From the IMG/VR virus record IMGVR_UViG_2124908030_000016: a stretch of 35,618 nucleotides of DNA; one strand, written 5' to 3'. Position 1 is the stretch's first letter. Each line of letters starts with the position of its first letter. Made by a program: the position numbers and the translations under genes. This DNA is from an uncultured virus (IMG/VR IMGVR_UViG_2124908030_000016) (taxonomy: Duplodnaviria > Heunggongvirae > Uroviricota > Caudoviricetes). Under the pieces are notes generated by a model. That model did not search any database. It was given only the letters and a program-made list of their open reading frames with translations, and was not told the origin of the DNA. Positions 1-35,618 of this stretch are shown piece by piece.

Positions 1-145
1 CTCTGACGCGCTTAAGGGTACCGCTTCCGGGGGCTCCACCTCGCTCGCAGGCTCGCTCGGTCGTTCCGCCGTGTCCTGGTACCCTTAAGCGGTCAAGCGA
101 GGCGCAACGTCCGAAGTGACGTTCGAAAGAACGTTGTTGATTGGT
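1..145 (+). repeat. Family-A upstream element, copy 1 (may extend left of the window): 14-bp perfect inverted repeat CGCTTAAGGGTACC (9-22) / GGTACCCTTAAGCG (78-91), then ACGTTC-GAAA-GAACGT hairpin
   Basis: Near-identical to 1557-1698; ends just before ATG 146. Confidence 0.9.
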
Positions 146-1066
146 ATGAGTGTCGAAAACACGCTCGTTGGCGTTGTGGCGCCGACGAACTGGTGTACGT
201 TCGAGGCGAACCGTGGAAGCAACCGACCTGCCGATGCGAATGTGTTCGACCATTCAGTGTCGCCCCCCGAAGCGCCGGATGCAGGAGCGACGTTCTGCCG
301 GATGCTGGCCTCGGCTGGCATCTCACCCTCGCCCGAGAAGACGACGTTCGTCGTCTTGGGTGGTGATGACGAAGATATCGAGCTCGACGGAAAGCGACTG
401 AAGGCGATGATGGAGTCAGTCACCGGCGCCGACGTCGAAACGTTCGAGACCGGGCCGTACCTGAACAGCAAGGATGCCGGCGAGGAGTGGCGCGAGGTGT
501 TCGAACGTCGTGACCGTGAGTTCGGTGAGTTCGTCGACGAACTGCTAGTGCTCCACGACGGTGAGGAGATGGTGTTCGACGACGTGACGTTCTTCGACGG
601 GAACCGGAATTCGGACGGCAAGACGAACTCAAATGGGTACGACAACCTGACCATCGAGCGCATCACCAGAGCCGTCGATGCGGACCACAGACACGGGATG
701 GCACCCGACGTCGGGCTCCCGGCAAGTGATGAGACGCGCGTCGTTCACGTCCAGGACGTCAACCGTGGTGACTCCGTCTACTGCGGTCGGGCCGACGGTG
801 GTAACTCGCACATCCTGAACACAGTGCCCGATGAGGAGGGCTGGCTCGGTAATCCGTTCTCGGTCGACGAGTACGGTCGTGACGGGGCCATCGCCCGGTT
901 TGCAATGGCGTTCAAGAAGTGCCTCGAGAACCCCGAATTCGCCTCGGCGGTGCGATGCCTCGAGGGTGAAGACTTGGCGTGTCACTGCCACGACGAGCCC
1001 GTCACCGAGGTCACCGAGGCTCCACAGTGTCACGCTGAAGTTATCCTCCAGGAGGTCGAAGGCTAA
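146..1066 (+). CDS. DUF4326 domain-containing protein (C-terminal domain)
   Basis: Motifs VVHV..VYCGR..WLGNPF..L.GEDLACHC..CHAEVI typical of DUF4326; ATG 146 chosen over GTG 116. Confidence 0.75.
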   Translation: MSVENTLVGVVAPTNWCTFEANRGSNRPADANVFDHSVSPPEAPDAGATFCRMLASAGISPSPEKTTFVVLGGDDEDIELDGKRLKAMMESVTGADVETFETGPYLNSKDAGEEWREVFERRDREFGEFVDELLVLHDGEEMVFDDVTFFDGNRNSDGKTNSNGYDNLTIERITRAVDADHRHGMAPDVGLPASDETRVVHVQDVNRGDSVYCGRADGGNSHILNTVPDEEGWLGNPFSVDEYGRDGAIARFAMAFKKCLENPEFASAVRCLEGEDLACHCHDEPVTEVTEAPQCHAEVILQEVEG

Positions 1067-1069
1067 CCA

Positions 1070-1426
1070 ATGAGTTCGAACAACAATACGGACGAGAACG
1101 AGATGCCAGACACAGTCGAGGTCAACGCAGGTGACCTTCACAAGGTGCTGAACAGGCTCGGCCTGACCCAGCAACTCTCACCGAACGCGGACGTCGACTA
1201 CGCACGAGAGCAAATCGGTCACGTCAAGGCCACCATCAACGTCTTCCTCGACTACCGGGAGGCGTACGGTGACTTCGGGTGCCTGACGACTGAAGAAGAC
1301 GGGGCACTAGCGCGACACATCGCAGACGACGTCACGTATATGCCAGCAGAGGAAATCTTCGAGCTGGTCGACTACGACGACTGGACTGACATCGAGCAGT
1401 CGGTCCTGGACCAGCGCTCGCAGTAA
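1070..1426 (+). CDS. hypothetical acidic protein
   Basis: 118-aa acidic ORF starting 3 nt after the previous stop. Confidence 0.75.
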   Translation: MSSNNNTDENEMPDTVEVNAGDLHKVLNRLGLTQQLSPNADVDYAREQIGHVKATINVFLDYREAYGDFGCLTTEEDGALARHIADDVTYMPAEEIFELVDYDDWTDIEQSVLDQRSQ

Positions 1427-1556
1427 GGGAGGCCGGTCACCGTGGCCGGGTAACGAACAACTGTTCGTCGAGCTCATCAGTGGGCCGGCCATCGTGGGCC
1501 CGACGACCAGGTGCGCGATCAGGAGCGACCCGCAACCGCACCGTACCCGCCAGCGC

Positions 1557-1698
1557 CTCTGACGCGCTTAAGGGTACCGGCTTCCGAGGGCTCCACCTCG
1601 CTCGCAGGCTCGCTCGGTCGTTCCGTCGTGTCCTGGTACCCTTAAGCGGTCGGTCGAGGCGCAACGTCCGAAGTAGCGTTCGAAAGAGCGTTGTTGTG
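1557..1698 (+). repeat. Family-A upstream element, copy 2
   Basis: Same CGCTTAAGGGTACC/GGTACCCTTAAGCG inverted repeat, internal CTCGCTCGCAGGCTCGCTCGGTCGTTC and GAAA hairpin; ends at ATG 1699. Confidence 0.9.
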
Positions 1699-1962
1699 AT
1701 GTCGACAATGGAATACGATAGCTACGCACGTGCCGGTGGACAGCCGGCTCCAGACGCCGAACGATGTATCGACTGTTGCTCGTACGCCCCCGTCAACGAC
1801 AGCGGGCGGTGCCCGAGCTGTGAAGACAACAAGCGCGACTACGACGTCGACACGGCATTCGCCAAGCAGTGTGTCGACAATCGAACGAGAAGCCCGCCAG
1901 AGCGTGACGAGGTAGCGTTCATCGAGCACGCACCACAGCCCGGTAACGGTGAATGGCCGTGA
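1699..1962 (+). CDS. small Cys-rich (zinc-finger-like) protein
   Basis: CIDC..CPSC; ATG follows the family-A repeat as in copy 1. Confidence 0.65.
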   Translation: MSTMEYDSYARAGGQPAPDAERCIDCCSYAPVNDSGRCPSCEDNKRDYDVDTAFAKQCVDNRTRSPPERDEVAFIEHAPQPGNGEWP

Positions 1963-2051
1963 GCTACGAGCGATGTGACGGCAAGTGCGGACGACTCGTT
2001 CCGAAAGATGGTGGCGAACTGTGTCCACGATGCAGAGGAGAGCTGTCGTGA
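1959..2051 (+). CDS. 30-aa Cys4 microprotein (CDGKC..CPRC)
   Basis: GTGA overlap with upstream stop; manual translation. Confidence 0.5.
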   Translation: MSYERCDGKCGRLVPKDGGELCPRCRGELS

Positions 2052-2445
2052 GCATCGGTACCTCGGTCGCACTCATCATCTCGATATGGGGACTGCNNNN
2101 NNNNNNNNNNNNNNNNGACACACGGTTGTGATCGCCGGCGTCGACGTCGTCGTCTTCGAGCTCGCGATCAGCAGACACACGATTGTGATCGACGACGTCG
2201 TCCGTGAACTCGTGAACTCGACTGCTGTCAACCAATCAGATATGAACAACCAGAACGCCCCGACACGCTCGCGGTCGCTCGGCGACATATCGCTCTCTGC
2301 ACAGCCCGCGATAGGGGTCGGCCGACGACGCCGTCGCGAGCGCGTCGCCCCGTTCAATCCACCCAGTGGCCGATTGATGCAACCCGATGCAACCCGATGC
2401 AACAGACGGACAGTAGAACCGGGCCGGGCTGTCACACGCCGACGC

Positions 2446-2587
2446 TCGACGGACCCGTCGTTGCGGTCGGTCTTTACTCGGCTCATTTTCTCCGGCGAGT
2501 CAACCGCTACGAGGTAGGTCGACCGGCCTCAAACACCGACTCGGCCGGGTAGACCTACTCCCGTAGCGGTTTTTGTCTTGGAGTGCA
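2446..2587 (+). repeat. Family-B upstream element, copy 1 (hairpin 2503-2570)
   Basis: ACCGCTACG..GTAGGTC / GACCTAC..CGTAGCGGT arms; shares TCGACGGACC, GGCGAGTC, ACTCCCGWAGCG and TTTGTCTTG-NN-GTGYA-ATG with 4358-4583. Confidence 0.7.
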
Positions 2588-3664
2588 ATGAGCCGAGTTG
2601 GCATCCCGACGGACGACGGAGTTGCGGTCGAGCGCGGAACGACGTGCTCGAAAAGAACAGTCGAATCGAATCAGGAGTTCATCGACCAAATGGTGGCAGA
2701 AGTCCCCGCAATCGGTGGTGTTCGTGCAGCGCGCATTGCCCGAAGGCTGGACGGAGCAGAGACCCTGCGCAGTCTCGCGAAGCGGAGTCGTGATGACTTG
2801 ATGACCATCATCTCAATCGGGCCGAAGACGGCTGACACGGTGCGTGAGTGGGCGCTCAAGAGCAAGTACACGTACGCAACTCCGGAGTCACAGAAGACGA
2901 CGCCTGACAACATCCTGGTCCTTGGAGGAGAGAAGATGAACAATCTCACCGAAGACAACGGAACGGAGCGCGTCGCGACGGTGATTGGGAACCAACTCGG
3001 CAAGATAGTTGACCTGGATGACGACTTCTGCGTCGGCTTCGACCGCACGTACGGTGGAAGGGCGGTCCAACACTGGGTCGAGCACCAGTGGGCAACGACC
3101 GACCGGCTGAACATCAGCGCGCAACGGTTCGCCATCCAGTGGGAAGACCACGTCTGCGATGCACAGTTGCGTGCGTGGAATAATGCCACTATCACGCACG
3201 ACGGTGGCTCGTGCCCAGGGTGTGAGTTCAGTGCTGCTGCGTGTGCTCGTGACAACCGGATGGCAGTCTGGGCAGACGCAGTCGTGGTGCTCGAAGACGA
3301 TGACTACCTCGACCGGTCGCTCGAGCGGATTCGACGATACGACCCGACGGTGGTCGACTTGCGCGGTGAGTCGGTTGCCCTCGAGTCGTGGACTCCAACG
3401 CCCAAGCAGACGCTCTCGAACACACTCGACGTCGAAGAACGCACGGAGAGCAAAGAGGAAGACGGAGTGATGACCAGTCCTGGTGAGGTGCTCGAGGCCG
3501 GGACCGTGGCCGAGTGGAAGCGAAAGAACGACGAAGAAACACTCAACGTCGACGACGAGGCGGTTCAGGAGGGTGAGACGTGGTACGACCGGGAAGACGA
3601 GAAGCAGGCACGCAAGCGCTCGGCTGGACAAGGCGTCGGCTCGAAAGGGTTCGCAACGAAATAG
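2588..3664 (+). CDS. helix-hairpin-helix + SLOG(YspA)-like domain protein
   Basis: HhH motifs VPAIGGVRA and IISIGPKTA; NILVLGG and ARDNRMAVWADAVVVL resemble the SLOG RN..M...ADAVV signature; ATG 2588. Confidence 0.55.
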   Translation: MSRVGIPTDDGVAVERGTTCSKRTVESNQEFIDQMVAEVPAIGGVRAARIARRLDGAETLRSLAKRSRDDLMTIISIGPKTADTVREWALKSKYTYATPESQKTTPDNILVLGGEKMNNLTEDNGTERVATVIGNQLGKIVDLDDDFCVGFDRTYGGRAVQHWVEHQWATTDRLNISAQRFAIQWEDHVCDAQLRAWNNATITHDGGSCPGCEFSAAACARDNRMAVWADAVVVLEDDDYLDRSLERIRRYDPTVVDLRGESVALESWTPTPKQTLSNTLDVEERTESKEEDGVMTSPGEVLEAGTVAEWKRKNDEETLNVDDEAVQEGETWYDREDEKQARKRSAGQGVGSKGFATK

Positions 3665-3762
3665 AGCCGACTGACGAACGATGTCACGTCGCGGTGGAAT
3701 GAGCCACACCGTGACGTTGGCAANNNNNNNNNNNNNNNNNNNNCTTCGGAGGTCGAGGACTG

Positions 3763-3900
3763 ATGAGTGGACTGCAAGAGCAGATGGTCGGTGTGACGTG
3801 TCCAGGCTGTGGAAGAACGGGCCTGGTGCCGGAACGTCGGGAGCAGAGGGTGCTCGATGGGCAGGCGGGCTGTCCAGCGTGCGAGGAGGTCGAGGACTGA
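3763..3900 (+). CDS. small CPxCG-type zinc-finger protein (45 aa)
   Basis: MSGLQEQMVGVTCPGCG..CPACEEVED; GGAGG upstream; TGATG coupling. Confidence 0.65.
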   Translation: MSGLQEQMVGVTCPGCGRTGLVPERREQRVLDGQAGCPACEEVED

Positions 3901-4079
3901 TGCGGTCCCGTGGCCGTCTCGACCGTCGTCGGCGTCAGCGGTTCGAGTTCGTCAAGACCTACTGTGCGCTGTGTGGCGACGACTTGGAAGTCACCGTCGA
4001 GCGCTACGAGCGGGCTGGCACGATGAATCGTGACCTGGTCTGTCACCGCTGTGCAGGAACGGAGGGCGAGGACGAATGA
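3900..4079 (+). CDS. small Cys4 zinc-finger protein (59 aa)
   Basis: CALCG..CHRC; GGAGG upstream; TGATG coupling. Confidence 0.65.
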   Translation: MRSRGRLDRRRRQRFEFVKTYCALCGDDLEVTVERYERAGTMNRDLVCHRCAGTEGEDE

Positions 4080-4357: not shown

Positions 4358-4580
4358 TCGACGGACCTGCCCGTTGCAGACCGCTGTACTTCATCGGGCC
4401 ATCCACGACGGCGAGTCGCACGCTTCGGGGTTGACCCGCGCCCCGAGCGCGCCCGTTCCGCAGCGACCGCAGGGCGCGCACGCGGTTCCAAAGTCACCCC
4501 CTCTCGGTCCGCTCCGCAGCGACCGCAGTCCCTCGGGGGGCGAGAGTACACTCCCGAAGCGTGCTTTGTCTTGTCGTGTA
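4358..4580 (+). repeat. Family-B upstream element, copy 2 (12-bp inverted repeat GCACGCTTCGGG 4418-4429 / CCCGAAGCGTGC 4553-4564)
   Basis: Shared motifs with 2446-2587; internal direct repeat TCCGCAGCGACCGCAG at 4457 and 4513. Confidence 0.7.
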
Positions 4581-5022
4581 ATGGCCCGAGATAGCCAGCG
4601 GACGGACGGACAGGTTGCAGACGACCAGCGCCAGCGACCGCAGTTGTCGGTTATCATCGCCGGTTCGCGGGGGTTCCTCGACGGTCTCGCTATTCAGTGA
4701 CGAGGACCGCGTCGAGCGCGTTGGTGCGATACTCGAGGCGGTTCCGTGGCCGGTCGACGAGGTCGTGTCGGGGACGGCCCGTGGCGCAGACACGGCCGGC
4801 GAGGCCTGGGCGGAGCACCACGGCGTCCCGGTGGAGCGCTTCCCGGCTGACTGGGACGAGCACGGCAAGAGTGCCGGTCCGATTCGCAATCAGGAGATGG
4901 CCGATTACGCGGACGCGGTCGTGGCCATCTGGGACGGGAAGTCGTCGGGCACTCACAATATGATCCGCACTGGTCGTGAAGACCTCGGCGATGACCGGGT
5001 GTTCGTCTACGAATACCGCTAG
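4581..5022 (+). CDS. DUF2493 / YspA-like SLOG family protein, split by a frameshift near 4680-4700
   Basis: VIIAGSRGF in the frame from ATG 4581; VVSGTARGAD..FPADWDEHGKSAGPIRNQEMADYADAVVAIWDGKSSGTHNMI in the +1 frame. Confidence 0.85.
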
Positions 5023-5044: not shown

Positions 5045-5871
5045 NNNNNNNNNNNNNNNNNNNNNNNNNNNNNNNNNNNNNNNNNNNNNNNNNNNNNNNN
5101 NNNNNNNNNNNNNNNNNNNNNNNNNNNNNNNNNNNNNNNNNNNNNNNNNNNNNNNNNNNNNNNNNNNNNNNNNNNNNNNNNNNNNNNNNNNNNNNNNNNN
5201 NNNNNNNNNNNNNNNNNNNNNNNNNNNNNNNNNNNNNNNNNNNNNNNNNNNNNNNNNNNNNNNNNNNNNNNNNNNNNNNNNNNNNNNNNNNNNNNNNNNN
5301 NNNNNNNNNNNNNNNNNNNNNNNNNNNNNNNNNNNNNNNNNNNNNNNNNNNNNNNNNNNNNNNNNNNNNNNNNNNNNNNNNNNNNNNNNNNNNNNNNNNN
5401 NNNNNNNNNNNNNNNNNNNNNNNNNNNNNNNNNNNNNNNNNNNNNNNNNNNNNNNNNNNNNNNNNNNNNNNNNNNNNNNNNNNNNNNNNNNNNNNNNNNN
5501 NNNNNNNNNNNNNNNNNNNNNNNNNNNNNNNNNNNNNNNNNNNNNNNNNNNNNNNNNNNNNNNNNNNNNNNNNNNNNNNNNNNNNNNNNNNNNNNNNNNN
5601 NNNNNNNNNNNNNNNNNNNNNNNNNNNNNNNNNNNNNNNNNNNNNNNNNNNNNNNNNNNNNNNNNNNNNNNNNNNNNNNNNNNNNNNNNNNNNNNNNNNN
5701 NNNNNNNNNNNNNNNNNNNNNNNNNNNNNNNNNNNNNNNNNNNNNNNNNNNNNNNNNNNNNNNNNNNNNNNNNNNNNNNNNNNNNNNNNNNNNNNNNNNN
5801 NNNNNNNNNNNNNNNNNNNNNNNNNNNNNNNNNNNNNNNNNNNNNNNNNNNNNNNNNNNNNNNNNNNNNNN
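5045..5871. other. assembly gap (N run)
   Basis: Run of N; shorter gaps at 2097-2116 and 3724-3743. Confidence 1.
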
Positions 5872-6319: not shown

Positions 6320-6463
6320 ATGGTCATAACAGAAGCAGACAAACCGACTCTACAGGCGTACTACTTCGACAAGAACAACGTGTACCAAATCGTCGACGAC
6401 GACGGGCCTCAGGGAGCGTTCATCTGGGTCAACGGCAGCGACACTGTCACGGTCAAACGATGA
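6320..6463 (+). CDS. hypothetical 47-aa protein
   Basis: ATG 6320; ATGA overlap with the next gene. Confidence 0.5.
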   Translation: MVITEADKPTLQAYYFDKNNVYQIVDDDGPQGAFIWVNGSDTVTVKR

Positions 6464-7260
6464 CACTCACTAACGTCAACTACTGTGGCGAGTTCCGCGC
6501 CGAACGACTTCGCGAAGTCGGTATCGAAGATGCCACCGACCTTGCCGAACAGGAGGCCCACGACCTGGCCGACCAGACGTACGGCATCAGCCAGCGCGAC
6601 TGTGCGCTGATGATTTCGTCAGCGCGAGACCAGGTCGACAACACCGACCCCGTGGTCGAGAAAGACGAACTGGACCGTCTGGTCGGTGTCGGCTCACAGG
6701 GACAACGCGTCCTTCGCAACAATGGCTACCAGTCGTTCCGTGACGTCGCCGAAGCCGATGCGCGTGAGCTCCACGAGACCATCCAGAACGACACCGATCG
6801 GGCGTACAACCACGACACAACGGTGACAGAAGCGATGATAGAGGACGCCTGTGAGCGTGTCGACATCGCTCGTAATCCGGATGCCAGCCCGGACACACCG
6901 TCACAGAACGGCGTCAGCGTGTTCGTGCTGGTCGGGGACGACGCACCCGAGCGTGATGAAACTGACACCGCCGACCGGATGCGCGAGGCGCTGGACACCG
7001 TTACAGAGCCAATCACAAAGTTGCTGGTGACCGAACCAGAGTACGGCCTGGACTGGGCGTCAACCTATCGGTCGAACACACCCCAACCGGTCGGACTCAG
7101 CGCCTATCAACCCCAGCACTACAACGATATCTACCAGCGCAACGAGTCCGTGATGCGAGATGCTGAGCACCTGGTCATCGTCGAGTCCGGGTTCCCCGCT
7201 GGCATCTTTATCTCGATGGCACCAGAATTCGACATCACCGTTCACCACGAAGACCGATGA
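6460..7260 (+). CDS. tandem HhH (RadA/Rad51 N-terminal-like) + SLOG-like domain protein
   Basis: LTNVNYCGEFRAERLREVGI..DLAE and LVGVGSQGQRVLRNNGYQS..DVAEA; C-terminal VFVLVG..YQRNESVMRDAEHLVIV. Confidence 0.55.
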   Translation: MTLTNVNYCGEFRAERLREVGIEDATDLAEQEAHDLADQTYGISQRDCALMISSARDQVDNTDPVVEKDELDRLVGVGSQGQRVLRNNGYQSFRDVAEADARELHETIQNDTDRAYNHDTTVTEAMIEDACERVDIARNPDASPDTPSQNGVSVFVLVGDDAPERDETDTADRMREALDTVTEPITKLLVTEPEYGLDWASTYRSNTPQPVGLSAYQPQHYNDIYQRNESVMRDAEHLVIVESGFPAGIFISMAPEFDITVHHEDR

Positions 7261-7562
7261 CAAAAGACGGCGTCCTGTACGTCCAAGAACAGCTGGCGAA
7301 TAAACTCGAAGACGAGATCACAGAAGCACTCGCTGAACACGAGATCCACGAACCGTTCAGACTCAATCCACAGCTCGGTGGTGGCTGGCACCAAAACATC
7401 GAGAAACGTTGGCCGAACGAGTCTGACATCCCGGTGTACTGCTACCAGGAGCGAGTCGGCACGCTCCACGTCGAGATGGAGTCGACGGTGAAACAAGGTA
7501 TGACTGGTGCCGAGTACGTCGGCAAGAAACTCACCGACTACACAATCACGATCACACAATGA
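7257..7562 (+). CDS. hypothetical protein, paralog of 28011-28292
   Basis: Shared V.(M/L)EST(V/I)K..(M/L)TG.EY(V/I)GKK(L/V)T.Y.I. Confidence 0.7.
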   Translation: MTKDGVLYVQEQLANKLEDEITEALAEHEIHEPFRLNPQLGGGWHQNIEKRWPNESDIPVYCYQERVGTLHVEMESTVKQGMTGAEYVGKKLTDYTITITQ

Positions 7563-8363: not shown

Positions 8364-8400
8364 TACGACTCACAGAGCTCGTCACGCAGGTCGAGTTCAT

Positions 8401-8477
8401 CCGTTCGTGCGCGACACAGCAGTAGTCCTCTCGGCTCCCTCCGGTCGCCGGTAGAACTATCTACGTGTCGCGCATAC
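8401..8477 (+). repeat. 77-78 bp hairpin element, copy 1 (subtype alpha)
   Basis: CCGTT..TGCGCGACAC-A-GCAG-TAGT..ACTA-T-CTAC-GTGTCGCGCA-TAC. Confidence 0.95.
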
Positions 8478-8498
8478 AGAAGTAGTGAAGTAAAACCA

Positions 8499-9647
8499 AT
8501 GATGGAAACCGTACCCGTTCAGACAGAAAAGCAGCTTGCGAATGATGAACAGCTCGTCGAATACGAGGAAGCAACCGCACAGTCGCGGGCGAGTCAAGAG
8601 GAGGTCGCAGAGGACTGGCTGCGACTGGTCTACGCAGACAGTAATCAGTCAAGCAGGCGTGCCGGTGTCATCTACACATCGGGATACGAGGCAGTACAAC
8701 ACGAGAATCCACGAACCGGTCGTGTCGAGTGGAACCGGCAGGTCGAAGCCGTCCGAACGGAGACGGGCCTCCTTCTGACGAACAATAACTTCGATTCCAC
8801 TGGAGGGCGGTTTGGCTCGAGTCACCGCAACCAGGTTCGTCGTGTGCTCTATCGCAGAAGCCGATCGTGGGAGCCCGACATCCCAGAGTACACGCAGGTG
8901 AGTATGGACCTCCGACTGGTCGAGGAGTTCATCAGTCAATTCCAGATGGACGTCGAACTCGAGGAGATAGCCCACATCAAGAACGAACGAGCGGACTATC
9001 TAATCACGTTCACCGACCACCAGCAACTGTTCATCGGAGACGATGATACAGCCCGGCGTGATCGCGATGGCCGATTCGGATTCATCGTCGACGGCGGTCG
9101 TGCGCCCAGCATCGAGGACGCCCTCAATATGCTGGTCCCCGACCCAGTCCAGCGCGCTCAGGCCAACGGCACGGACGTCGAGCGTCAGGGTGAGTGGTTC
9201 CTCATCCCAGCAGACGACGGCCCCGAGAGTCGCATTCAGAAGCCCGGAATGGGGTCCAAGCCCTACGGAGCAAGCCCGCTGGACAGCCACGTTCCACGAG
9301 ACTGGGCAACGATCAACAACGAACAGGTCATCATCGACGAGATCGCACACCAGGACGACCTCGAGCTCGCCGGTGACACCACACCCGAGGAGTTCGCAGA
9401 CGAGATCGACACACTGCAAGAACTGCTGGAGTTCTTCAAAACGGGGCAGTATCACTACCGCTCGGAGTTCGGCATCGAGGAACTCCGTGATCGACTCCAG
9501 GACGAGCTGTTCATCCGAGGCTCGGTCCGACACCGCGACAACGAGCACTACCAGCTCACCCTGGACGACTGGCATCGCGCGTTCACTCACGGCGTCGAGG
9601 TCATCACCGTCGACGACACTTCGTTGATGCGAGTGCGCTTCGACTGA
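8499..9647 (+). CDS. hypothetical protein with phage-type RQG(E/D)W..H..H..EH motif
   Basis: VERQGEWFLIP..SHVP..RGSVRHRDNEHYQLTL; 382 aa. Confidence 0.75.
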   Translation: MMETVPVQTEKQLANDEQLVEYEEATAQSRASQEEVAEDWLRLVYADSNQSSRRAGVIYTSGYEAVQHENPRTGRVEWNRQVEAVRTETGLLLTNNNFDSTGGRFGSSHRNQVRRVLYRRSRSWEPDIPEYTQVSMDLRLVEEFISQFQMDVELEEIAHIKNERADYLITFTDHQQLFIGDDDTARRDRDGRFGFIVDGGRAPSIEDALNMLVPDPVQRAQANGTDVERQGEWFLIPADDGPESRIQKPGMGSKPYGASPLDSHVPRDWATINNEQVIIDEIAHQDDLELAGDTTPEEFADEIDTLQELLEFFKTGQYHYRSEFGIEELRDRLQDELFIRGSVRHRDNEHYQLTLDDWHRAFTHGVEVITVDDTSLMRVRFD

Positions 9648-9652
9648 ACACA

Positions 9653-10468: not shown

Positions 10469-11248
10469 TTGCAACGACGACCAGCGACGGCTGTACTGTC
10501 CATCCACAGAGATGGACCGGTGCGACACACGACACCGAAAGGCTACGAGTTTGCCGACCGCGTCGAAATCAAGCAGATAACAAAGCAAACGGCAAACGAG
10601 GTCTACAGACATCACCACAGTTACTGTGGGCCGATTACTGGTCCGGTGTTCAACGAGGGCTCACACGGAATCTACTACCGAGACCAGCTCTGTGGTGCAA
10701 TCTCGTACAACTTCGGGCTGGGAAAGTGCCTCAGTCTGACGTTCACCGAGAACGGAATCACAAGAGATCAAAGCAACGGTATCACCAAGAACATCTGTAA
10801 AGGCGGAAACATCGTCGAGGTCGATCGTATCTGCATCGGAGTGGACTTCCCGAATTTGGCCAGCTGTGCGTTCGCAAAGAGCCAGGATACGTTCATCCGC
10901 AACAGTCGGCAGGGCCCAACGTTCGACACGACCACGAGCAACGTCGACTTCCTGATGACGTTCGTCCGTATCGACCACACTGGGTCGATGATTAAAGCAC
11001 TCTCAGACAAGGGCTGGGAGCTCGTCGGCGTTCAAGAGCCGGACGCAAGCGCATCAAACCGAGATGCACGCGAAATCAACGAGTGGGGCAAGACCCGCTG
11101 GATAAGACCAATCGGAGACGCCCACAGTCGAGTTCGAGACTGCCCGTGTCCCGACGAGAAGATCATCGAACACGGCAAGTCGTACTTCTGTACAAACTGC
11201 CGAGCCTGGTACGGCCACCTCGGCCACGACTGGGCCCCCAACAACTGA
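10469..11248 (+). CDS. Mom-family (GNAT-fold) DNA adenine-modification-like protein
   Basis: HHSY, GIYYRDQLCGAISY, EVDRICI, NLAS, DHTGSMIKA..GWELVG follow the Mom/XF1762 motif order; true start may be ATG 10453 with a frameshift. Confidence 0.6.
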   Translation: MQRRPATAVLSIHRDGPVRHTTPKGYEFADRVEIKQITKQTANEVYRHHHSYCGPITGPVFNEGSHGIYYRDQLCGAISYNFGLGKCLSLTFTENGITRDQSNGITKNICKGGNIVEVDRICIGVDFPNLASCAFAKSQDTFIRNSRQGPTFDTTTSNVDFLMTFVRIDHTGSMIKALSDKGWELVGVQEPDASASNRDAREINEWGKTRWIRPIGDAHSRVRDCPCPDEKIIEHGKSYFCTNCRAWYGHLGHDWAPNN

Positions 11249-11326
11249 CCGTTTCTGCGCGACATCGCACTAACCCGCGTCGACTCCCGATAGTCGTCGA
11301 CGGAGTTATGTGCGTGTCTCGCATAC
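11249..11326 (+). repeat. hairpin element, copy 2 (subtype beta)
   Basis: Starts directly after TGA 11248; TGCGCGACAT..TAAC..GTTA..GTGTCTCGCATAC. Confidence 0.95.
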
Positions 11327-11345
11327 TTATCAGGTAGCGAAGAAA

Positions 11346-11747: not shown

Positions 11748-11935
11748 ACTACGAGTACATCATCTCCGAGAACGATGCAGAGAGCGCACGAGAAGCATTC
11801 GCCGAGACGCGGTTCGGCGACAACGAAGTCACTGACACACACGTCTACGACGAGAACGTGACGGGTGTGTTCTTCGAGTCAGACGAAGCGATCGACCACC
11901 GACTGGTCATCTGTACCGACGAACTGGAGGACTGA
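11744..11935 (+). CDS. hypothetical protein
   Basis: Coupled on both sides; acidic. Confidence 0.7.
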   Translation: MNYEYIISENDAESAREAFAETRFGDNEVTDTHVYDENVTGVFFESDEAIDHRLVICTDELED

Positions 11936-12836: not shown

Positions 12837-12913
12837 CCGCTGGTGCACGACACGGCACTAATCCTTCCGGCTCCTGATAGTCACCGGAAGAAATATGTGC
12901 GTGTCGCGCATAC
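12837..12913 (+). repeat. hairpin element, copy 3 (subtype gamma)
   Basis: Directly after TAA; TGCACGACAC..CTTCCGG..CCGGAAG..GTGTCGCGCATAC. Confidence 0.95.
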
Positions 12914-24223: not shown

Positions 24224-24232
24224 CACAGCTAT

Positions 24233-24310
24233 CCGTTCGTGCACGACATAGCCATAGCTCTATCCGACTCCGTTCCGTCGTGGGACGAACTATGTTCGTG
24301 TCGCGCATAC
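24233..24310 (+). repeat. hairpin element, copy 7 (subtype delta)
   Basis: TGCACGACAT..CATAG..CTATG..GTGTCGCGCATAC. Confidence 0.95.
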
Positions 24311-24455
24311 TGTGGGTTACAGATGTCGGTCGAACCAGCACCAACCGAACAGCAGAAAGAGAGAACACAAAGAGACCAACACTAATGACAGAAACGTACA
24401 CAGTCGGCATCGACGACCTGTTCTACGAGTCCGAGGACATCGAGGTCGAAAACTG

Positions 24456-24659
24456 ATGCCCTGCTTCGAACAGTTCCCCGACGAGATCGACGAAGAGAGA
24501 GACAGACCAATCGGAGCCATCGGGATCAACTTCAGCTTCCCGACCGACGTCCGAGAGGACGAGACGCCCAAAGAGGCGGTCCAACGCTGGATCGACGAAC
24601 AGAGCGACGAAGAACTCGCCGAGTTCGTCCGCGAGCGGACCTGGGAGTACTGGTACTGA
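24456..24659 (+). CDS. hypothetical acidic protein (preceded by 23-aa ORF 24385-24456)
   Basis: MPCFEQFPD..; stop abuts repeat copy 8. Confidence 0.6.
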   Translation: MPCFEQFPDEIDEERDRPIGAIGINFSFPTDVREDETPKEAVQRWIDEQSDEELAEFVRERTWEYWY

Positions 24660-24737
24660 CCATTTCTGCGCGACACGGCACTAACCCGCATCGGCTCCCG
24701 ATAGTCTCCGATGGAGTTATGTGCGTGTCGCGCATAC
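24660..24737 (+). repeat. hairpin element, copy 8 (subtype beta)
   Basis: Directly after TGA; TGCGCGACAC-G-GCAC-TAAC..GTTA-T-GTGC-GTGTCGCGCATAC. Confidence 0.95.
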
Positions 24738-24757
24738 TTCAACCCGAAGTCAGACAG

Positions 24758-27175: not shown

Positions 27176-27354
27176 CACTCGATCTCACAGCAATCAGCGA
27201 ACGGATTGATGACCTCCGAGACGAACGGGCTCGTCTCGAGCAGCGAGATCCTAACACTACGACAGACGACGTCCTCAACGGGGCCAGACGGACAGCAATC
27301 ATCGCAGAGATTCACCATCTCACGGCAATCAAACATACAAACCACAACCAATGA
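27172..27354 (+). CDS. hypothetical protein
   Basis: ATGA overlaps. Confidence 0.55.
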   Translation: MTLDLTAISERIDDLRDERARLEQRDPNTTTDDVLNGARRTAIIAEIHHLTAIKHTNHNQ

Positions 27355-27611
27355 ACCCAACCACGAGAGTCAAGCACGACGACATCACAATCGACGTTCA
27401 CGACGAGGAAGACGCAGTAACTGTCACCACCGGGTCGTACCGATACGGTCACCCAGGACTGGCACTCACGATCCACTTCGACTACCTCAACGAGCTCGTC
27501 GACGAGGACATCCAGGACGACACCGAGAAACTCCTGGACATCGCCATCGACCGCGCTGTCGGCCGTATCGACACGCTGAACGAAGAGTCCGTACTCAACT
27601 ACGATGACTAA
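27351..27611 (+). CDS. hypothetical protein
   Basis: Acidic; coupled. Confidence 0.7.
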   Translation: MNPTTRVKHDDITIDVHDEEDAVTVTTGSYRYGHPGLALTIHFDYLNELVDEDIQDDTEKLLDIAIDRAVGRIDTLNEESVLNYDD

Positions 27612-28014
27612 GATCAACACGTCGATCGACATCCAGCACGGACTCGAACGAGCGTTCCGAGAAACCCTCCGAGGACACGGAATCAAGCCGAAGAACATCC
27701 CGAACCTCGAGGTCACCGAGACCGTCCTCAACATCGGGGACTACTTCGACGTTGAAGCCTTCCGGGAGTCCCACGTCGGCGAGGTCGACAACATCGACCA
27801 CGTGGTCCACGAAACCTACGCGCCGTACTGGCTCTACCTCACGGGCGTCCCCGAGATCGAGCTCAGCGAGGTCGACCACAACAGTCCGATGCGAGAACTC
27901 GACATCACCGTCGACATCACGACCGACAACGACGGCACTCTGCTGAACACGCGCTACCAGCGACTACTCGGCTGTCTGCTCGGCGACGCCGTGGCACGGA
28001 GGATGGACAAATGA
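27604..28014 (+). CDS. hypothetical protein
   Basis: 136 aa; coupled. Confidence 0.7.
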   Translation: MTKINTSIDIQHGLERAFRETLRGHGIKPKNIPNLEVTETVLNIGDYFDVEAFRESHVGEVDNIDHVVHETYAPYWLYLTGVPEIELSEVDHNSPMRELDITVDITTDNDGTLLNTRYQRLLGCLLGDAVARRMDK

Positions 28015-28292
28015 GTAGCGAGGGAGAGCTGTTCTGTCGCAATCATATCCCCGAGGTCCTCGACGACGTGGACCGTATCACCGACGTCCCGGTGAAGTAC
28101 TGGACGTCGACGGAGCAACGACTTCCCGGTGAAGTCGAACTGGAAGCGGTCGTCAACAAACGGGAAGAACAGATCCTCGTTCAGCTGGAGTCGACGATCA
28201 AAAGAGACCTGACAGGAGGAGAGTACATCGGAAAGAAAGTAACCGGGTACGAGATCGTCGACGGCGCAGAGTCACAGGAAGTACAGCAATGA
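28011..28292 (+). CDS. hypothetical protein, paralog of 7257-7562
   Basis: VQLESTIKRDLTGGEYIGKKVTGYEI. Confidence 0.7.
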   Translation: MSSEGELFCRNHIPEVLDDVDRITDVPVKYWTSTEQRLPGEVELEAVVNKREEQILVQLESTIKRDLTGGEYIGKKVTGYEIVDGAESQEVQQ

Positions 28293-28644: not shown

Positions 28645-28712
28645 AACAGGACCACCCCGATGGCGAAGTCGTGCCCGACAGCGAGATTGAACGTCGCTCG
28701 ATCAACGACTAA

Positions 28713-28790
28713 CCGTTCCTGCGCGACACCGCAGTAGTCCGTATCGCTTCCCTCCGGTTAGCGATAGAACTATCTGCGTGTCACGCATAC
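28713..28790 (+). repeat. hairpin element, copy 9 (subtype alpha)
   Basis: After TAA; TGCGCGACAC-C-GCAG-TAGT..TATCGCT..AGCGATA..ACTA-T-CTGC-GTGTCACGCATAC. Confidence 0.95.
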
Positions 28791-28797
28791 AGTCAGA

Positions 28798-31003: not shown

Positions 31004-31399
31004 ATGACCGACGACACGTTCGACGCCGACGAAGAGAGCGTGACAGACGCCTGGGAAGGCGCGTACATCTACACGAGCTGGGGCTACAACCGTACTACCG
31101 TCAACTTCGCACAGATCGTCGACGTCTCCGGCTCGGGCAAGACAGTCGTCGCACGGCTGGTCCACGCCGACGTCGTTGAGAACGAGCGAGGGTCACAGCA
31201 GATGCGACCAGATGCAGAGCAGTACGGAGACGCGTTCCGACTTCACGTTCGAGCAGTCCGGAGCGACCCGTCGTTCCGTGGGTCGTACCCGTTCGCGACC
31301 GGCGACGAGGACGACGGCACCCGGCTGGACAGCTTCTTGCCGTTCGATAACAGCCCCGACAAGACCGTCCACCAGACGCCTCCGAACCACGGCCACTAA
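31004..31399 (+). CDS. mobile-element hypothetical protein with SWGY..T.VNF.Q motif
   Basis: YTSWGYNRTTVNFAQIV. Confidence 0.7.
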   Translation: MTDDTFDADEESVTDAWEGAYIYTSWGYNRTTVNFAQIVDVSGSGKTVVARLVHADVVENERGSQQMRPDAEQYGDAFRLHVRAVRSDPSFRGSYPFATGDEDDGTRLDSFLPFDNSPDKTVHQTPPNHGH

Positions 31400-31484
31400 C
31401 GAGGACCACATCGCCCGCCTCAGCCTCAGCCAGTCGATGCTAACCAACAGTGCCGGAAAGAACTGGCCTGTGTTGGTTAGTGAA

Positions 31485-31562
31485 CCGTTCGCGCGCGTCA
31501 GCGCACTATCCCTTCTGACTCCCTACTGGTCGTCAGAAGAAATATGTACGCGACGCGCGTAC
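31485..31562 (+). repeat. hairpin element, copy 10 (divergent gamma)
   Basis: CGCGCGTC..GCAC-TAT..CTTCTGAC..GTCAGAAG..ATA-T-GTAC..GACGCGCG-TAC; outer stem compensated. Confidence 0.9.
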
Positions 31563-31596
31563 GACACACGATGCCGAAACTAAACAGTAAACACAG

Positions 31597-32162: not shown

Positions 32163-32296
32163 ACAACTGTGATTTCTGTGGTCGTGAAATCGACGACTAC
32201 GAGGCACGAGTCGGCGCAGAGTTCCACGAAGACGACGAACCAATCTGCACGAAGTGCATTGCAGAGGAGATGATGAACGAACTCGGGGCCCGCTAA
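32159..32296 (+). CDS. 45-aa Cys4 microprotein, similar to the previous one
   Basis: MNNCDFCG..ICTKCIAE; TAATG coupling. Confidence 0.6.
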   Translation: MNNCDFCGREIDDYEARVGAEFHEDDEPICTKCIAEEMMNELGAR

Positions 32297-32706
32297 TGGA
32301 CCTCACACAAGAGCGACACGAGCCAGCTGTCGGTGACATCTACGAGACAAGCCGTGACGACGTCTACCAGGTGCTGTACATCGACGATCAGATGGTTCTG
32401 CTCCGCGATTCGGACGAAGGTCGAAACGGTGACAACATCCACCGGATGGAGCGCCGTGTGAACTTCACGAAAGAGGTCGATGCAGGATTCTTCGAGCACC
32501 AACCTGACTCGAGTCTCGATATGATGGACGAGGCAGAGCGTGATTGGACTGACGTCGACCTGATCGGTGCCAAAACAGCAGAGAACCTGTACGATGCCGA
32601 GTGCAAGACGGGCCTCGACATCCAACAGGCCGATGACGACGAACTTCTCGAGGTCAGTGGCGTCGGTATGGCCGGCCTCCAGAACCTGAAAGAGTTCACA
32701 GGATGA
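32296..32706 (+). CDS. C-terminal tandem helix-hairpin-helix protein
   Basis: VDLIGAKTAENL..DDELLEVSGVGMAGLQNL. Confidence 0.75.
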   Translation: MDLTQERHEPAVGDIYETSRDDVYQVLYIDDQMVLLRDSDEGRNGDNIHRMERRVNFTKEVDAGFFEHQPDSSLDMMDEAERDWTDVDLIGAKTAENLYDAECKTGLDIQQADDDELLEVSGVGMAGLQNLKEFTG

Positions 32707-33065: not shown

Positions 33066-33244
33066 TGCCAACCAAACCAAAGACCCTCGCAGAGAACCTG
33101 AAGAAGAAGAATCCGGACGCGAACATCGACCGAGAGTCGACGTGCAAGGACTGTCGGTCCAGAATCGCTCTCGAAGAACTGTACTGGTACAAGCGTCAGT
33201 CGTGGCGCTGCACTGATTGCCATCCGCACTTCAACGAACAGTGA
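33065..33244 (+). CDS. 59-aa Cys4 microprotein
   Basis: CKDC..CTDC; coupled on both sides. Confidence 0.6.
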   Translation: MPTKPKTLAENLKKKNPDANIDRESTCKDCRSRIALEELYWYKRQSWRCTDCHPHFNEQ

Positions 33245-34092
33245 CGACTCCAAACATCGACGACATCCTCGACAGCATCGCATCGCTCGCAGACACACCA
33301 GATGACGAAGACGGCCCATACGACCCAGTACTCGTGTTTGCAGGAGAGGACCTCCCAGACTACAGAGAGAAGCTCCCAGCAGACAACGACCTGATCACCA
33401 AGCACGGCGAAGTTGGCGACGTCAAGTTCTTCGAATACCACCCCCGGATGTGGCACTTCGACGAGGGCGCGTTCGTCCTCGCCGACGGGGACCTGGACTA
33501 CGACGATTACGACTACATCCCGGAGTTCGAGGTCACCATCGAGCCCGACGACTACGTGGCGTACCGACTGGTCGCGCCGATGCTCCACGGCGACGAAGAC
33601 CTGTCGTTCACCCTAGAGTTTAGTGTCGGGGACGAACTGGAGCTTGATATGCCGTTCCGACACAGCCGGTTCAGCCGGCACGAACTCAAGGACCCGGACC
33701 ACACCGGGGAGTTCGTCCCCGACATCGACGAGGACTACGAGGCGTTCGTCGAGTACGTCGCCGAGCGCAACCGACTGGTCGACGGCGCCTCGCCCTACCA
33801 CCTCACGGGAGTGATAGTCTCGGGCATCGAGGACATCGGGTACAACAGCGAGAGCCAGAAGTTCGCGCTCACCTACGCCTGTGAGCCGTACCTGCCGGGC
33901 TCCGAAGAGCGCCTCTGGCCCAGGGACGTCCTCACGGCATATCCCGACTACCCCATCGAGCTCGAGAACAGTGACGTCGACAGCGTCTACGACCTCGCCC
34001 GAGCGGTACTCGCGAAAGACATCGAGGCGTACTACGAGCGCAACAACCTCTACGACTCCAACGACGACCTGATCCTCGTCGACCCGCAATAA
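33241..34092 (+). CDS. hypothetical acidic protein
   Basis: GTGA overlap; 283 aa. Confidence 0.75.
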   Translation: MTTPNIDDILDSIASLADTPDDEDGPYDPVLVFAGEDLPDYREKLPADNDLITKHGEVGDVKFFEYHPRMWHFDEGAFVLADGDLDYDDYDYIPEFEVTIEPDDYVAYRLVAPMLHGDEDLSFTLEFSVGDELELDMPFRHSRFSRHELKDPDHTGEFVPDIDEDYEAFVEYVAERNRLVDGASPYHLTGVIVSGIEDIGYNSESQKFALTYACEPYLPGSEERLWPRDVLTAYPDYPIELENSDVDSVYDLARAVLAKDIEAYYERNNLYDSNDDLILVDPQ

Positions 34093-34095
34093 CCA

Positions 34096-34172
34096 CCGTT
34101 CCTGCGCGACACAGCAGTAGTCCTTCCGGCGCCCTTCGGTTGCCGTTAGAACTATCTGCGTGTCACGCATAC
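34096..34172 (+). repeat. hairpin element, copy 11 (subtype alpha)
   Basis: 3 nt after TAA; TGCGCGACAC-A-GCAG-TAGT..ACTA-T-CTGC-GTGTCACGCATAC. Confidence 0.95.
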
Positions 34173-34181
34173 AGAAATCTG

Positions 34182-34340
34182 ATGAGATGTGCTCATTGTG
34201 AGTCACGGATCCAGTCGGATCGCTTCCTCGAACTCCAGCCCTGTACGACAAGCAGTACAGACGAGCTGGTCCGGGAGAACATCGCGTGGTTCGTCCACAC
34301 CGAGTGTGCGCCCGGCCTGATCGAGGCGCGCTTCGAATGA
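34182..34340 (+). CDS. small CxxC..HxxC protein
   Basis: MRCAHC..HTEC. Confidence 0.6.
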   Translation: MRCAHCESRIQSDRFLELQPCTTSSTDELVRENIAWFVHTECAPGLIEARFE

Positions 34341-34669
34341 ACCACGCAAGCATCCTGAACGCACGACGTGCGCTGTCGAGAGCGCTTCAGAAAGACACCA
34401 TCGACGTCGACGAGGTCGACCGTGCGATAGAGCTCCTCGACCAGGAGCTCGCCCGAAAAGACCTCTACGCAGACTCGGGGACAGACTACCTCGACATCAA
34501 ACTCGACGGAAAACTGATCGTGAAAACTGATCACGACCCGGACAACGATGTCGTCAAAGTAGCAGTCCGCGAACCCGGTGGAAACGCCCAGCGTGAGCTC
34601 GAGAAGTTTAGGATCGACGTCGAGGGGGTCATCGACACCGAAGTTGTCGACCTGACCAACGCGGAGTAA
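34337..34669 (+). CDS. hypothetical protein
   Basis: ATGA overlap. Confidence 0.7.
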   Translation: MNHASILNARRALSRALQKDTIDVDEVDRAIELLDQELARKDLYADSGTDYLDIKLDGKLIVKTDHDPDNDVVKVAVREPGGNAQRELEKFRIDVEGVIDTEVVDLTNAE

Positions 34670-34678
34670 CACCATACA

Positions 34679-35491
34679 ATGACAGACGACCCACTCACTC
34701 AGTACACAGTGGAACTGCTCGCAGAGAAAGCCATCGAGACGTTCCATCAGGATGCGTGCCGGCCCACACCGGACACTGTCCGCGGAATCATCGAGAAAGA
34801 CCTCGAGGATCACGACATCGATCCAGACGACAACCACAAACTCACGCAGAAAATCGTCAACAAGGCAATAGACCAGCTCATCTCGCTAATCATCACCGAG
34901 GTCGAGGAATACCTCAACGAACGTCAGCTCGAGCGAGATGACGACCAGGTCAAGGATGCCGTCTACGATGTGTTCCATCAGAACAACATCGATCCCAACG
35001 AACACACGGCGTTCTACGGCAGTGTCATCTCCAACGCGAAGAACGAACTCGGGATGACGACGACCACCAGAGACCCAGAAGAAGAGGATGTCGTCGTCGG
35101 CCAGCGTGTCAAAATGGGAACCGACGCCAGCCCGTGGTACACCATCACGAGTGTGGGTCGGTACGAGGGTATGCTTCACTTCGCCGGTGAGACAGAGGAC
35201 GGAGAAACGGTCGCTGGACGAACCCGAGGTGAGATACACAAGATGGAGGTCAGCAAAGTCGACCTCTGGGAGCCCGAATTCATCGAGTTCGAAAACAACT
35301 GGCCCGTCTTCGACTGCGACCCCTGTCCGTGCTGTGGGTCGGGGTCAATCACGATGCAGTACGACGTGAGTGCTCAGTTCGACGGCACGAAAGACCTCAA
35401 CTTCCGCATCGACATTCCGAACGAACTCGTCTGCGTCATCTGGGCACGATGCAATGGCTGTTCGACGGTTCTCCACGAAGGAGAACGATGA
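34679..35491 (+). CDS. hypothetical protein with C-terminal zinc ribbon related to 14294-14767
   Basis: DCDPCPCCGS..AQF.G..RCNGCSTVLHE. Confidence 0.7.
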   Translation: MTDDPLTQYTVELLAEKAIETFHQDACRPTPDTVRGIIEKDLEDHDIDPDDNHKLTQKIVNKAIDQLISLIITEVEEYLNERQLERDDDQVKDAVYDVFHQNNIDPNEHTAFYGSVISNAKNELGMTTTTRDPEEEDVVVGQRVKMGTDASPWYTITSVGRYEGMLHFAGETEDGETVAGRTRGEIHKMEVSKVDLWEPEFIEFENNWPVFDCDPCPCCGSGSITMQYDVSAQFDGTKDLNFRIDIPNELVCVIWARCNGCSTVLHEGER

Positions 35492-35618
35492 CAGCAACCA
35501 CCAGCACGATCCTGATCGACGACGACTCACAGGGCGACGGCCGAGTGATGGCGTTCCCGTCGACCGGCGACGACGAGCTGTTCGACGTGTTCCTCCTGGA
35601 GTCCTCCAATACGAGTCG
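35488..35618 (+). CDS. 5' part of a hypothetical protein (runs off the window)
   Basis: ATGA overlap; open to the end of the window. Confidence 0.55.
   Translation, partial: MTATTSTILIDDDSQGDGRVMAFPSTGDDELFDVFLLESSNTS

Follow-up and report, generated by a model that had tools for sequence, protein, structure and literature searches.

A covarying intergenic hairpin ahead of gene blocks in a one-directional region of a probable tailed virus or plasmid-prophage of haloarchaea

What kind of element reads some seventy short genes in a single direction, and what is the function of the structured repeats that stand between them? This question is raised by IMG/VR record IMGVR_UViG_2124908030_000016, a sequence from an uncultured virus assigned to the Caudoviricetes. 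The window analysed here is the whole stretch of 35,618 nucleotides (nt); it has about 59% GC, a + strand with a strong A-over-T skew and 867 bases masked as N (positions 2097-2116, 3724-3743 and 5045-5871). A sequence-only reading of this DNA had proposed that it is an archaeal leading or early region of counter-defence and host-takeover genes. In our assessment the window is probably part of the non-structural arm of a large tailed virus of haloarchaea, or of such a virus maintained as a plasmid-prophage. This arm would comprise early or middle and replication-accessory genes, and the most abundant of the repeats, termed family A, would serve as a set of repeated promoters.

Three families of hairpins stand ahead of gene blocks in the window, as the sequence-only reading had stated, with 11 copies of family A and two copies each of families B and C. 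Family A elements are 85 nt in length, and all 11 are intergenic and lie on the + strand. All copies listed below are defined by repeat alignment, fold and covariance model, and some lines add features particular to the copy in question.

8399 to 8482, + strand: family A copy 1 (covariance model 89.7 bits; ATG 22 nt past the stem end)
11247 to 11331, + strand: family A copy 2 (the Mom-like gene takes its stop codon from the 5' edge of this copy)
12835 to 12918, + strand: family A copy 3
16462 to 16546, + strand: family A copy 4 (100.7 bits; directly upstream of the GHKL-HExxH gene)
19858 to 19942, + strand: family A copy 5
21547 to 21631, + strand: family A copy 6
24231 to 24315, + strand: family A copy 7 (weakest fold of all copies, z -1.8)
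24658 to 24742, + strand: family A copy 8
28711 to 28795, + strand: family A copy 9
31483 to 31567, + strand: family A copy 10 (outer stem with compensatory changes)
34094 to 34177, + strand: family A copy 11

The family A fold is a three-segment hairpin of about 70 nt with 24-29 bp, and its z-score is -4.4 or lower in 10 of the 11 copies. A covariance model recovers exactly these 11 elements (73-101 bits, all on the + strand), and the next matches in rank are their own reverse strands and noise. When a 25-pair structure is laid over a plain MAFFT alignment, 77.9% of the cells are paired, as against at most 51.8% when the pairing partners are slid. Changes on both sides of a pair are present at 10 pairs, and the observed score was reached by none of 500 shuffles. 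Additionally, the sequence of the inner stem varies among the copies while its pairing is kept. Because the inner stem varies but stays paired, and because the pairs covary, we conclude that the pairing itself is under selection in family A.

Searches for this hairpin in other DNA gave little. An IUPAC pattern of family A has no match in IMG/VR and none in 69 loci, and the covariance model (R1) finds a single match of chance level in the same 69 loci (13.4 bits, E 0.6). A 20-kb DNA search of 401 sampled Halobacteria genomes returned no match at any hairpin, which is a weak negative as two candidates were scored per genome. Contigs from four runs of one study exhibit no rearrangement joints at the hairpins, with coverage near 9-10x for the run that is the likely source and 1-3x for the remaining ones. 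Loose ends at 8401 and 8481 are explained by the 34094 copy aligning onto the 8399 copy.

The two strands of the element do not fold equally well. The fold of the - strand is the better one in all 11 copies, with summed energies for the - versus the + strand of -464 versus -382 kcal/mol as RNA and -246 versus -215 as DNA. The union of predicted pairs comprises 296 Watson-Crick cells, 23 A.C cells on the + strand (which are G.T on the - strand) and 11 G.T cells on the + strand; the 23 A.C cells derive from 10 stem positions, mostly from two conserved C.A positions, and the 11 G.T cells from seven positions. As the copies are related to one another these counts are not independent, and we treat the asymmetry as a hint that does not permit a strand call.

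Within the 3' arm of the hairpin the sequence TAT(G/C)T is invariant (11/11 copies) and begins 20 nt before the end of a conserved GCATAC. The longer AT-rich box, (A/C/T)TAT(G/C)T, is preceded by a purine-rich GAAGAA-like stretch. A start codon follows the stem end at short range in every copy, namely ATG at 8-35 nt in nine, TTG at 13 nt in one and GTG at 2 nt in one. On the opposite side, 7 of the 11 copies have a stop codon at their 5' edge, which several of the upstream genes use. A GAAGT-like motif that stands equally far from the AT-box after family A and after family B was set aside, being present in only about 6-7 of the 11 copies and possibly a Shine-Dalgarno remnant.

These features lead us to propose that the 11 family A elements are most likely repeated promoters with the (A/C/T)TAT(G/C)T box as TATA element. 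If TAT(G/C)T does have this role, transcription would start a few bases past the stem end and 2-35 nt ahead of the start codon. The roughly 70 short genes are read one way, in at least 13-15 units that are each headed by a structured intergenic repeat. The hairpin may add a second function to that of the promoter, such as control by a regulator, a response to DNA supercoiling through cruciform extrusion, or 3'-end formation or processing of the upstream transcript.

A precedent for repeated intergenic promoters exists in the haloarchaeal virus HF2. Its class I intergenic repeats are 58 bp in length and occur in seven copies, all of which have promoter activity in a reporter assay, and the HF2 repeat promoters have a TATA box at -26 and a transcription factor B recognition element at -33 to -37 (PMC8707807). 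Like the promoters of HF2 and other Haloferacalesvirus members described in that report, family A is intergenic, oriented with the genes and placed at the head of gene blocks, with an AT-rich box some 26 nt ahead of the position where transcription is expected to begin. The two differ in that family A is longer (85 nt versus 58 or 29), GC-rich and built as a covarying hairpin of 24-29 bp, and in that its promoter activity is predicted. The HF2 repeats are not described as hairpins in the Results of that report, where one copy has a 9-bp inverted repeat (PMC8707807). There is also no sign of sequence kinship, as the conserved motifs given for the HF2 class I and class II repeats (PMC8707807) are absent from the family A alignment and positions 6300-30000 of the window have no megablast match to any phage record.

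The gene layout is that of a strictly one-directional region. Tiling of the window by GC content at third codon positions gave 74 open reading frames (ORFs), 67 of which are on the + strand, and the curated set comprises 71 + strand ORFs that cover 85.7% of the window. The encoded proteins are small, with a median of 123 amino acids (aa) and 50 of the 71 at 150 aa or fewer. Adjacent ORFs overlap or abut in 29 of 70 pairs, in 19 cases by a 4-nt ATGA/GTGA overlap. The other seven ORFs from the tiling lie on the - strand and are Val/Leu-rich shadows, antisense to acidic + strand frames; family scans of three of the seven gave no match. We discount all seven as genes, so that there is no credible - strand gene in the window, and the one-strand layout is unbroken up to both window ends. 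The window has no tRNA genes.

Few of these proteins belong to recognized families. Among the 74 scanned ORFs, Pfam matches at E<=0.01 were obtained for 10, with curated cut-offs passed by three (DUF4326, YAcAr and HHH_5/Cdd1), while PHROGs matched nine, NCBIfam three (all HhH or sacsin-like GHKL) and PADLOC none. The earlier description of small ORFans on the + strand only is borne out by this set of 71 ORFs and its few family matches. The proteins are acidic as well, with an isoelectric point (pI) below 5 in 57 of 71 and a median pI of 4.5. Since acidic proteins are normal for the "salt-in" proteomes of haloarchaea, acidity is not a signal of DNA mimicry or anti-defence function. Three pairs of small proteins are paralogous within the window: 7257-7562 with 28011-28292, 12540-12836 with 14031-14297, and 14294-14767 with 34679-35491 (blastp E 1.5e-8, 4e-7 and 7e-5, respectively).

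As to the nature of the element, we infer from shared genes, with good confidence, that it is a tailed virus or plasmid-prophage. The window sequence is present in four runs of one hypersaline-lake metagenome study, and its contig is taken to be the 123,245-nt contig that bears its GHKL-HExxH cluster, so that the element would be at least 123 kb in size. The most informative relative is NZ_CP058532.1, deposited as Halobaculum halophilum strain Gai3-2 'plasmid unnamed3' (148,857 nt), which encodes a terminase, HK97-gp10, a head-tail adaptor, a tape measure protein, baseplate J, DNA polymerase B (PolB), a helicase, a ribonucleotide reductase and ThyX. Because terminase, tape measure and baseplate genes are present, this replicon is a complete tailed-virus genome rather than a plasmid. 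Its annotated genes, among them about 75 kb of small hypothetical ones, share one strand almost without exception, and it is within this small-gene region that homologues of four of the 71 window proteins are encoded (43% identity for the Mom-like protein, 31% for the GHKL-HExxH protein and 36-37% for two ORFans). NZ_CP058532.1 therefore resembles the window in its one-strand layout, its tens of kilobases of small hypothetical genes and its repeated intergenic elements. The repeats themselves differ, as those of NZ_CP058532.1 comprise several AT-rich, promoter-like families placed right before ATG codons, together with GTAC-rich repeats, and the family A covariance model has no match in that genome.

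Further links to viruses come from other sources. IMG/VR contig G001 (31.7 kb, 40-43% GC) carries a relative of the GHKL-HExxH protein (41% identity) inside a replication module with PolB, helicase, exonucleases, thymidylate synthase, dCTP deaminase and integrase. Among virus isolates there are matches to the DUF4326 protein (phiH, PhiCh1), to the Mom-like protein (HRTV-4 gp19, 33% identity, E 6e-21) and to the MazG-like domain (HHTV-2). Terminase_6N, searched for in three IMG/VR contigs with GHKL relatives, was found in none of them. Megablast of window positions 6300-30000 matched nothing in phages and nothing in plasmids, and in the 401 sampled Halobacteria genomes the window has matches of at most 235 nt, in 41 genomes. 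As only such short matches occur, the window is not syntenic core chromosome, a condition under which the sequence-only reading would have had to be abandoned.

Contig G001 has a repeat of its own that deserves mention. At least 10 copies of an intergenic repeat of about 85-90 nt are present on the gene strand (L001 1100-12930 with L071), each composed of a tRNA-like piece (acceptor-like stem and T-arm), a T-run and a small hairpin, and ending about 10 nt before an ATG. One copy is called tRNA-Met by ARAGORN. The sequence of these repeats suggests that they are tRNA-like punctuation of transcripts.

Several findings weigh against a viral arm with repeated family A promoters. The window is 35.6 kb of a 123,245-nt contig, and Pfam and PHROG find no terminase, capsid or portal gene within it. 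Just 4 of the 71 window proteins match NZ_CP058532.1. The Mom-like gene has closer matches on 26 haloarchaeal plasmid records (about 41-43% identity among the 12 matches listed) than on virus isolates, and in 20 of 24 Natrialbales loci the GHKL-HExxH gene has, within a few kilobases, a neighbour that encodes ArdC-N and M78-like domains. With respect to the promoters, the family A box is only a weak TATA-like match and the start of transcription is a prediction, and the better folding of the - strand in all 11 copies is unexplained by a plain double-stranded promoter.

Family A may instead act mainly as RNA on the + transcript, in processing, in 3'-end formation or stability, or as terminators, with the promoters elsewhere or secondary. 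We regard this as possible though rather unlikely. All 11 copies are oriented with the genes, 10 of them fold well as RNA, and several overlap or abut the upstream stop codon. Transcripts of HF2 reach about 35 kb (PMC8707807), and the tRNA-like intergenic repeats of G001 would fit processing of the RNase P/Z type. However, it is the antisense strand that folds better in every copy, the stem is not followed by a T-run, and Rfam has no family at the hairpins.

A more elaborate form of the promoter hypothesis is that family A elements are structure-dependent archaeal virus promoters, active as a cruciform or as a folded single-stranded DNA (ssDNA) template, that would be the counterpart of the early promoters of phage N4 or the Frpo promoters of plasmids and would time counter-defence genes at DNA entry. 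We consider this doubtful. If it were true, the stem would present the TATA-like box and the stem base would mark the start site.

It is less probable still that the window is the leading region of an archaeal conjugative plasmid, with hairpins on the entering - (template) strand acting as Frpo-like ssDNA promoters for anti-defence genes. The window does resemble the Frpo-type leading regions of bacterial conjugative plasmids in its co-oriented genes, in the good folding of the template strand and in a promoter-like box within the stem. Stability favours the - strand hairpin in every one of the 11 copies, the + strand has 23 A.C against 11 G.T cells, and the TATA-like box lies about 20 nt from the stem base, so that initiation would fall at that base. 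ArdC-like genes near relatives of the GHKL-HExxH protein, and one plasmid with such a relative that is typed MPF_T, point the same way. Against this, the strand asymmetry derives from 10 versus seven stem positions and mainly from the two conserved C.A positions, and the domain of life and the type of promoter differ from those of Frpo systems. None of the 74 window ORFs has a Pfam or NCBIfam match to relaxase, type IV secretion system, ssb, psiB, ardA, ardB or ardC families, and the ArdC-like genes are confined to the surroundings of distant GHKL relatives in Natrialbales. Of the replicons that share genes with the window, the two that were examined from end to end are both tailed viruses. 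Plasmids of haloarchaea are not known to enter cells as ssDNA. The proposal of the sequence-only reading divides into two parts, of which the early-type accessory region of a mobile element, with regulatory repeats before its gene blocks, is supported and the conjugative leading region is not.

It is quite improbable that the window belongs to a genomic island, such as a provirus remnant or a defence island, on a haloarchaeal chromosome or megaplasmid. Homologues of the Mom-like and GHKL-HExxH proteins do reside on large plasmids and in multi-copy islands, but the 35.6 kb contain no housekeeping genes, transposases or defence families (Pfam, PADLOC and NCBIfam scans), the one-strand layout runs unbroken to the window ends, and there is no synteny in the 401 sampled Halobacteria genomes. 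Least credible is an integron-like cassette array, with hairpins as attC-like sites folded on the bottom strand and blocks as mobile ORFan cassettes, since co-oriented ORFans between imperfect palindromes with conserved outer and variable inner parts, a bottom strand that folds better and the 5'-edge stop codon of seven copies out of 11 are offset by the lack of an integrase match in the window (Pfam, PHROG), by blocks of one to eight translationally coupled genes rather than one, by the fixed short distance from element to next start codon, by contigs of four samples (at low depth) without joints at the hairpins, and by attC core motifs not being seen in family A.

Returning to a viral arm as the favoured setting, several genes in the window are candidates for host interference or self-protection. 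These are the Mom-like modifier, the DUF4326 and YAcAr-SLOG proteins with putative NAD/ADP-ribose chemistry, the MazG-like protein and the GHKL-HExxH protein as a possible ATPase-metalloprotease. The genes and other features outside the hairpin families are as follows.

116 to 1066, + strand: DUF4326 protein, Cys-rich towards the N-terminus and with the DUF4326 domain at the C-terminus (Pfam E 1.9e-12, phrog_464)
2573 to 3664, + strand: HhH-domain protein (Pfam HHH_5/HHH_2, below cut-off)
3763 to 4079, + strand: three CxxC..CxxC zinc-ribbon mini-ORFs in tandem (repeat and ORF inspection)
4615 to 5022, + strand: YAcAr-family SLOG protein (Pfam YAcAr E 1.5e-11, above cut-off; phrog_289 E 6.4e-24)
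5045 to 5871, no strand: masked N stretch inside a long + strand ORF
6460 to 7260, + strand: protein with two HhH modules (Pfam HHH_5 E 4.1e-7, Cdd1, DUF4332; NCBIfam RadA N-terminal-like)
8499 to 9647, + strand: 382-aa protein of a viral family (metagenomic homologues, IMG/VR loci, PHROG)
10469 to 11248, + strand: Mom-like protein, candidate DNA-modifying acyltransferase with a C-terminal zinc ribbon (Pfam Mom, homologues)
11935 to 12540, + strand: 201-aa ORFan (tblastn 28-30% identity, E down to 1e-15)
16565 to 18289, + strand: GHKL-HExxH protein, with Hsp90/sacsin-like ATPase and middle domains and a C-terminal HExxH..H zincin-like domain (motifs, model, NCBIfam)
19100 to 19484, + strand: MazG-like pyrophosphatase-type domain (phrog_2164 E 1.3e-15; HHTV-2 gp20 E 2e-7)
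20400 to 20591, + strand: 63-aa ORFan (NZ_CP058532.1 homologue, 36% identity, E 3e-6)
27351 to 27611, + strand: 86-aa ORFan (NZ_CP058532.1 homologue, 37% identity, E 7e-17)
32254 to 32706, + strand: small protein with a C-terminal HhH (Pfam HHH_5 E 6.9e-6, at 26.9 bits just under the cut-off of 27)

Assignment of the Mom-like protein depends on its relatives. The window protein itself matches Pfam Mom (PF25680) at E 0.02 and 15 bits, short of the gathering cut-off of 27.1, and five of the six members of its family match Mom at E <= 0.1, with a best E of 1.1e-5; one homologue has a precomputed PF25680 assignment. The Mom-like modifier named by the sequence-only reading is thus supported through its homologues, with the window protein remaining sub-threshold. 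As in Mom of phage Mu, there is an N-terminal region of the HHSY..G..GAISY type, which corresponds to the beginning of the Mom profile; unlike Mu Mom, the window protein has an extra C-terminal zinc ribbon, in addition to its sub-cut-off score, and its DNA-modification chemistry is putative. A 68-74-nt stretch of the gene (10944-11017) matches about 30 of the 401 sampled Halobacteria genomes at 77-78% identity, and these genomic matches are presumed to be Mom-like genes of plasmids or proviruses.

The GHKL-HExxH protein is better defined, and the earlier recognition of it is confirmed by conserved motifs across 42 relatives. Residues E34, N38, D41, D61, G63, G65, G94, G97 and G99 are invariant in 42 sequences and make up what we take to be the N-box (ExxxNxxD), G1 (DxGxG) and G2 (GxxGxG) motifs, and the zincin-like residues H519, E520, H523 and H533 are conserved at 90% or more in the same set. 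A structural model (pLDDT, a predicted local confidence measure, of 87.8) finds TRAP1/Hsp90 by Foldseek (E 3.7e-14, TM 0.40-0.45), and NCBIfam recognizes a sacsin-like N-terminus in the window protein, with PF13589 in two relatives. Judged from sequence and model together, the protein belongs to the GHKL ATPase superfamily. It shares with Hsp90, TRAP1 and sacsin the N-box, G1 and G2 and a matching fold of the N-terminal and middle domains, and it differs from them in having only 12-15% identity and an HExxH..H domain in place of the dimerisation domain. A tblastn search with this protein against phage isolates gave no match, and the best match of its profile to the PDB is PMS1 at E 0.09.

Relatives of the GHKL-HExxH protein were found only in hypersaline material in the searches made, and amount to 42 proteins including its own cluster, three IMG/VR loci, 39 metagenome loci and 27 genome loci. 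The genome loci are nearly all from Natrialbales, often on plasmids and with several copies per genome; for example, Natrinema hispanicum DSM 18328 has six loci and strain CDM_6 has four. The Natrialbales loci have a conserved module, often on plasmids, in which the GHKL-HExxH gene is accompanied by the ArdC-N/M78-like gene, HalOD1 and ribbon-helix-helix (RHH) genes. Additionally, a homologue of the 201-aa ORFan lies upstream of the GHKL gene in six Natrialbales loci. Together these distributions show a conserved family that moves among hypersaline archaea both in tailed viruses and on plasmids. A further intergenic repeat, of 66-92 nt, is common to two GC-rich metagenome contigs whose GHKL relatives have 38-40% identity, L011 (5733-5824, 11975-12066) and L017 (12457-12522, 14553-14618).

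Other genes in the window bear on the same set of candidate functions. The DUF4326 gene, whose true start may be the ATG near 147, matches 15 phage records by tblastn, all of which are haloarchaeal viruses (phiH, PhiCh1, SH1, PH1, HHIV-2 and HCIV-1). The SLOG gene likely starts at the ATG at 4582 and the HhH gene at 2573-3664 at the ATG at 2589. Proteins with SLOG and HhH domains had been noted from sequence alone, and Pfam agrees, with YAcAr above its cut-off and three HhH proteins. YAcAr-SLOG and DUF4326 proteins are predicted to act in NAD/ADP-ribose-centred conflict systems of jumbo phages (PMC7824862). Together with the Mom-like gene they provide a few of the counter-defence-linked genes that the sequence-only reading had expected, with roles that are predictions. 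The sequence-only reading also saw candidate anti-CRISPR or anti-restriction proteins in the small acidic ORFans, an idea for which the analysis gave no positive sign. Known anti-CRISPR or anti-restriction families are absent from the Pfam, PHROG and NCBIfam matches, in which there is a sub-threshold zinc-ribbon match to Lar and the weak match to Mom.

The 382-aa protein at 8499-9647 has 13 metagenomic homologues besides itself and 33 IMG/VR loci, and phrog_29643 is matched by 12 of 14 of their ORFs. It has no known fold (model pLDDT 72.8; best Z 4.4, which is noise level; one unnamed BFVD match) and no tblastn match in phages; the protein at 31004-31399 likewise has no tblastn match in phages, and that at 33217-34092 has no usable match in the ESM Atlas. 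The start given for the MazG-like domain is approximate, since only the C-terminal approximately 120 aa of ORF 18612-19484 match. Inside this ORF, positions 19233-19296 have a sub-threshold Rfam match to the C/D-box sRNA sR55 (29 bits versus 35, E 0.002) that is probably due to chance. The three zinc-ribbon mini-ORFs at 3763-4079 are linked by an 18-nt stop/start junction that is present in two exact copies and one at 83%.

The remaining hairpin families, B and C, occupy the first part of the window and are real though small.

1 to 95, + strand: family B copy 1 (14-16-bp outer stem around about 55 nt; z -3.6; upstream of the DUF4326 gene)
1558 to 1652, + strand: family B copy 2 (93% identity to copy 1; z -4.6)
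about 2500 to 2572, + strand: family C copy 1 (z -5.5; followed by TTTTGTCTTGGAGTGCAATG and the HhH gene start)
about 4418 to 4564, + strand: family C copy 2 (z -3.4; followed by CTTTGTCTTGTCGTGTAATG and the SLOG gene start)

Both of the long family C hairpins lead into an identical start region, TTTGTCTTG..GTG.AATG. A 13-nt word, GCAGCGACCGCAG, or a near copy of it occurs three times within and just past the family C hairpin ahead of the SLOG gene (4461-4630).

The layout of the window is of a kind known for haloviruses, and what is new is a hairpin that is under selection to pair. Large haloarchaeal viruses contain tens of kilobases of one-directional genes of unknown function whose timing is known only for HF2, and family A provides a well-defined, covarying candidate for a hairpin promoter in such a region. 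At least one deposited "plasmid", NZ_CP058532.1, is in fact a complete virus genome. Lastly, the Mom-like, DUF4326 with SLOG, MazG-like and GHKL-HExxH genes constitute a set of candidates that may act against the restriction and nucleotide-signalling defences of haloarchaea.

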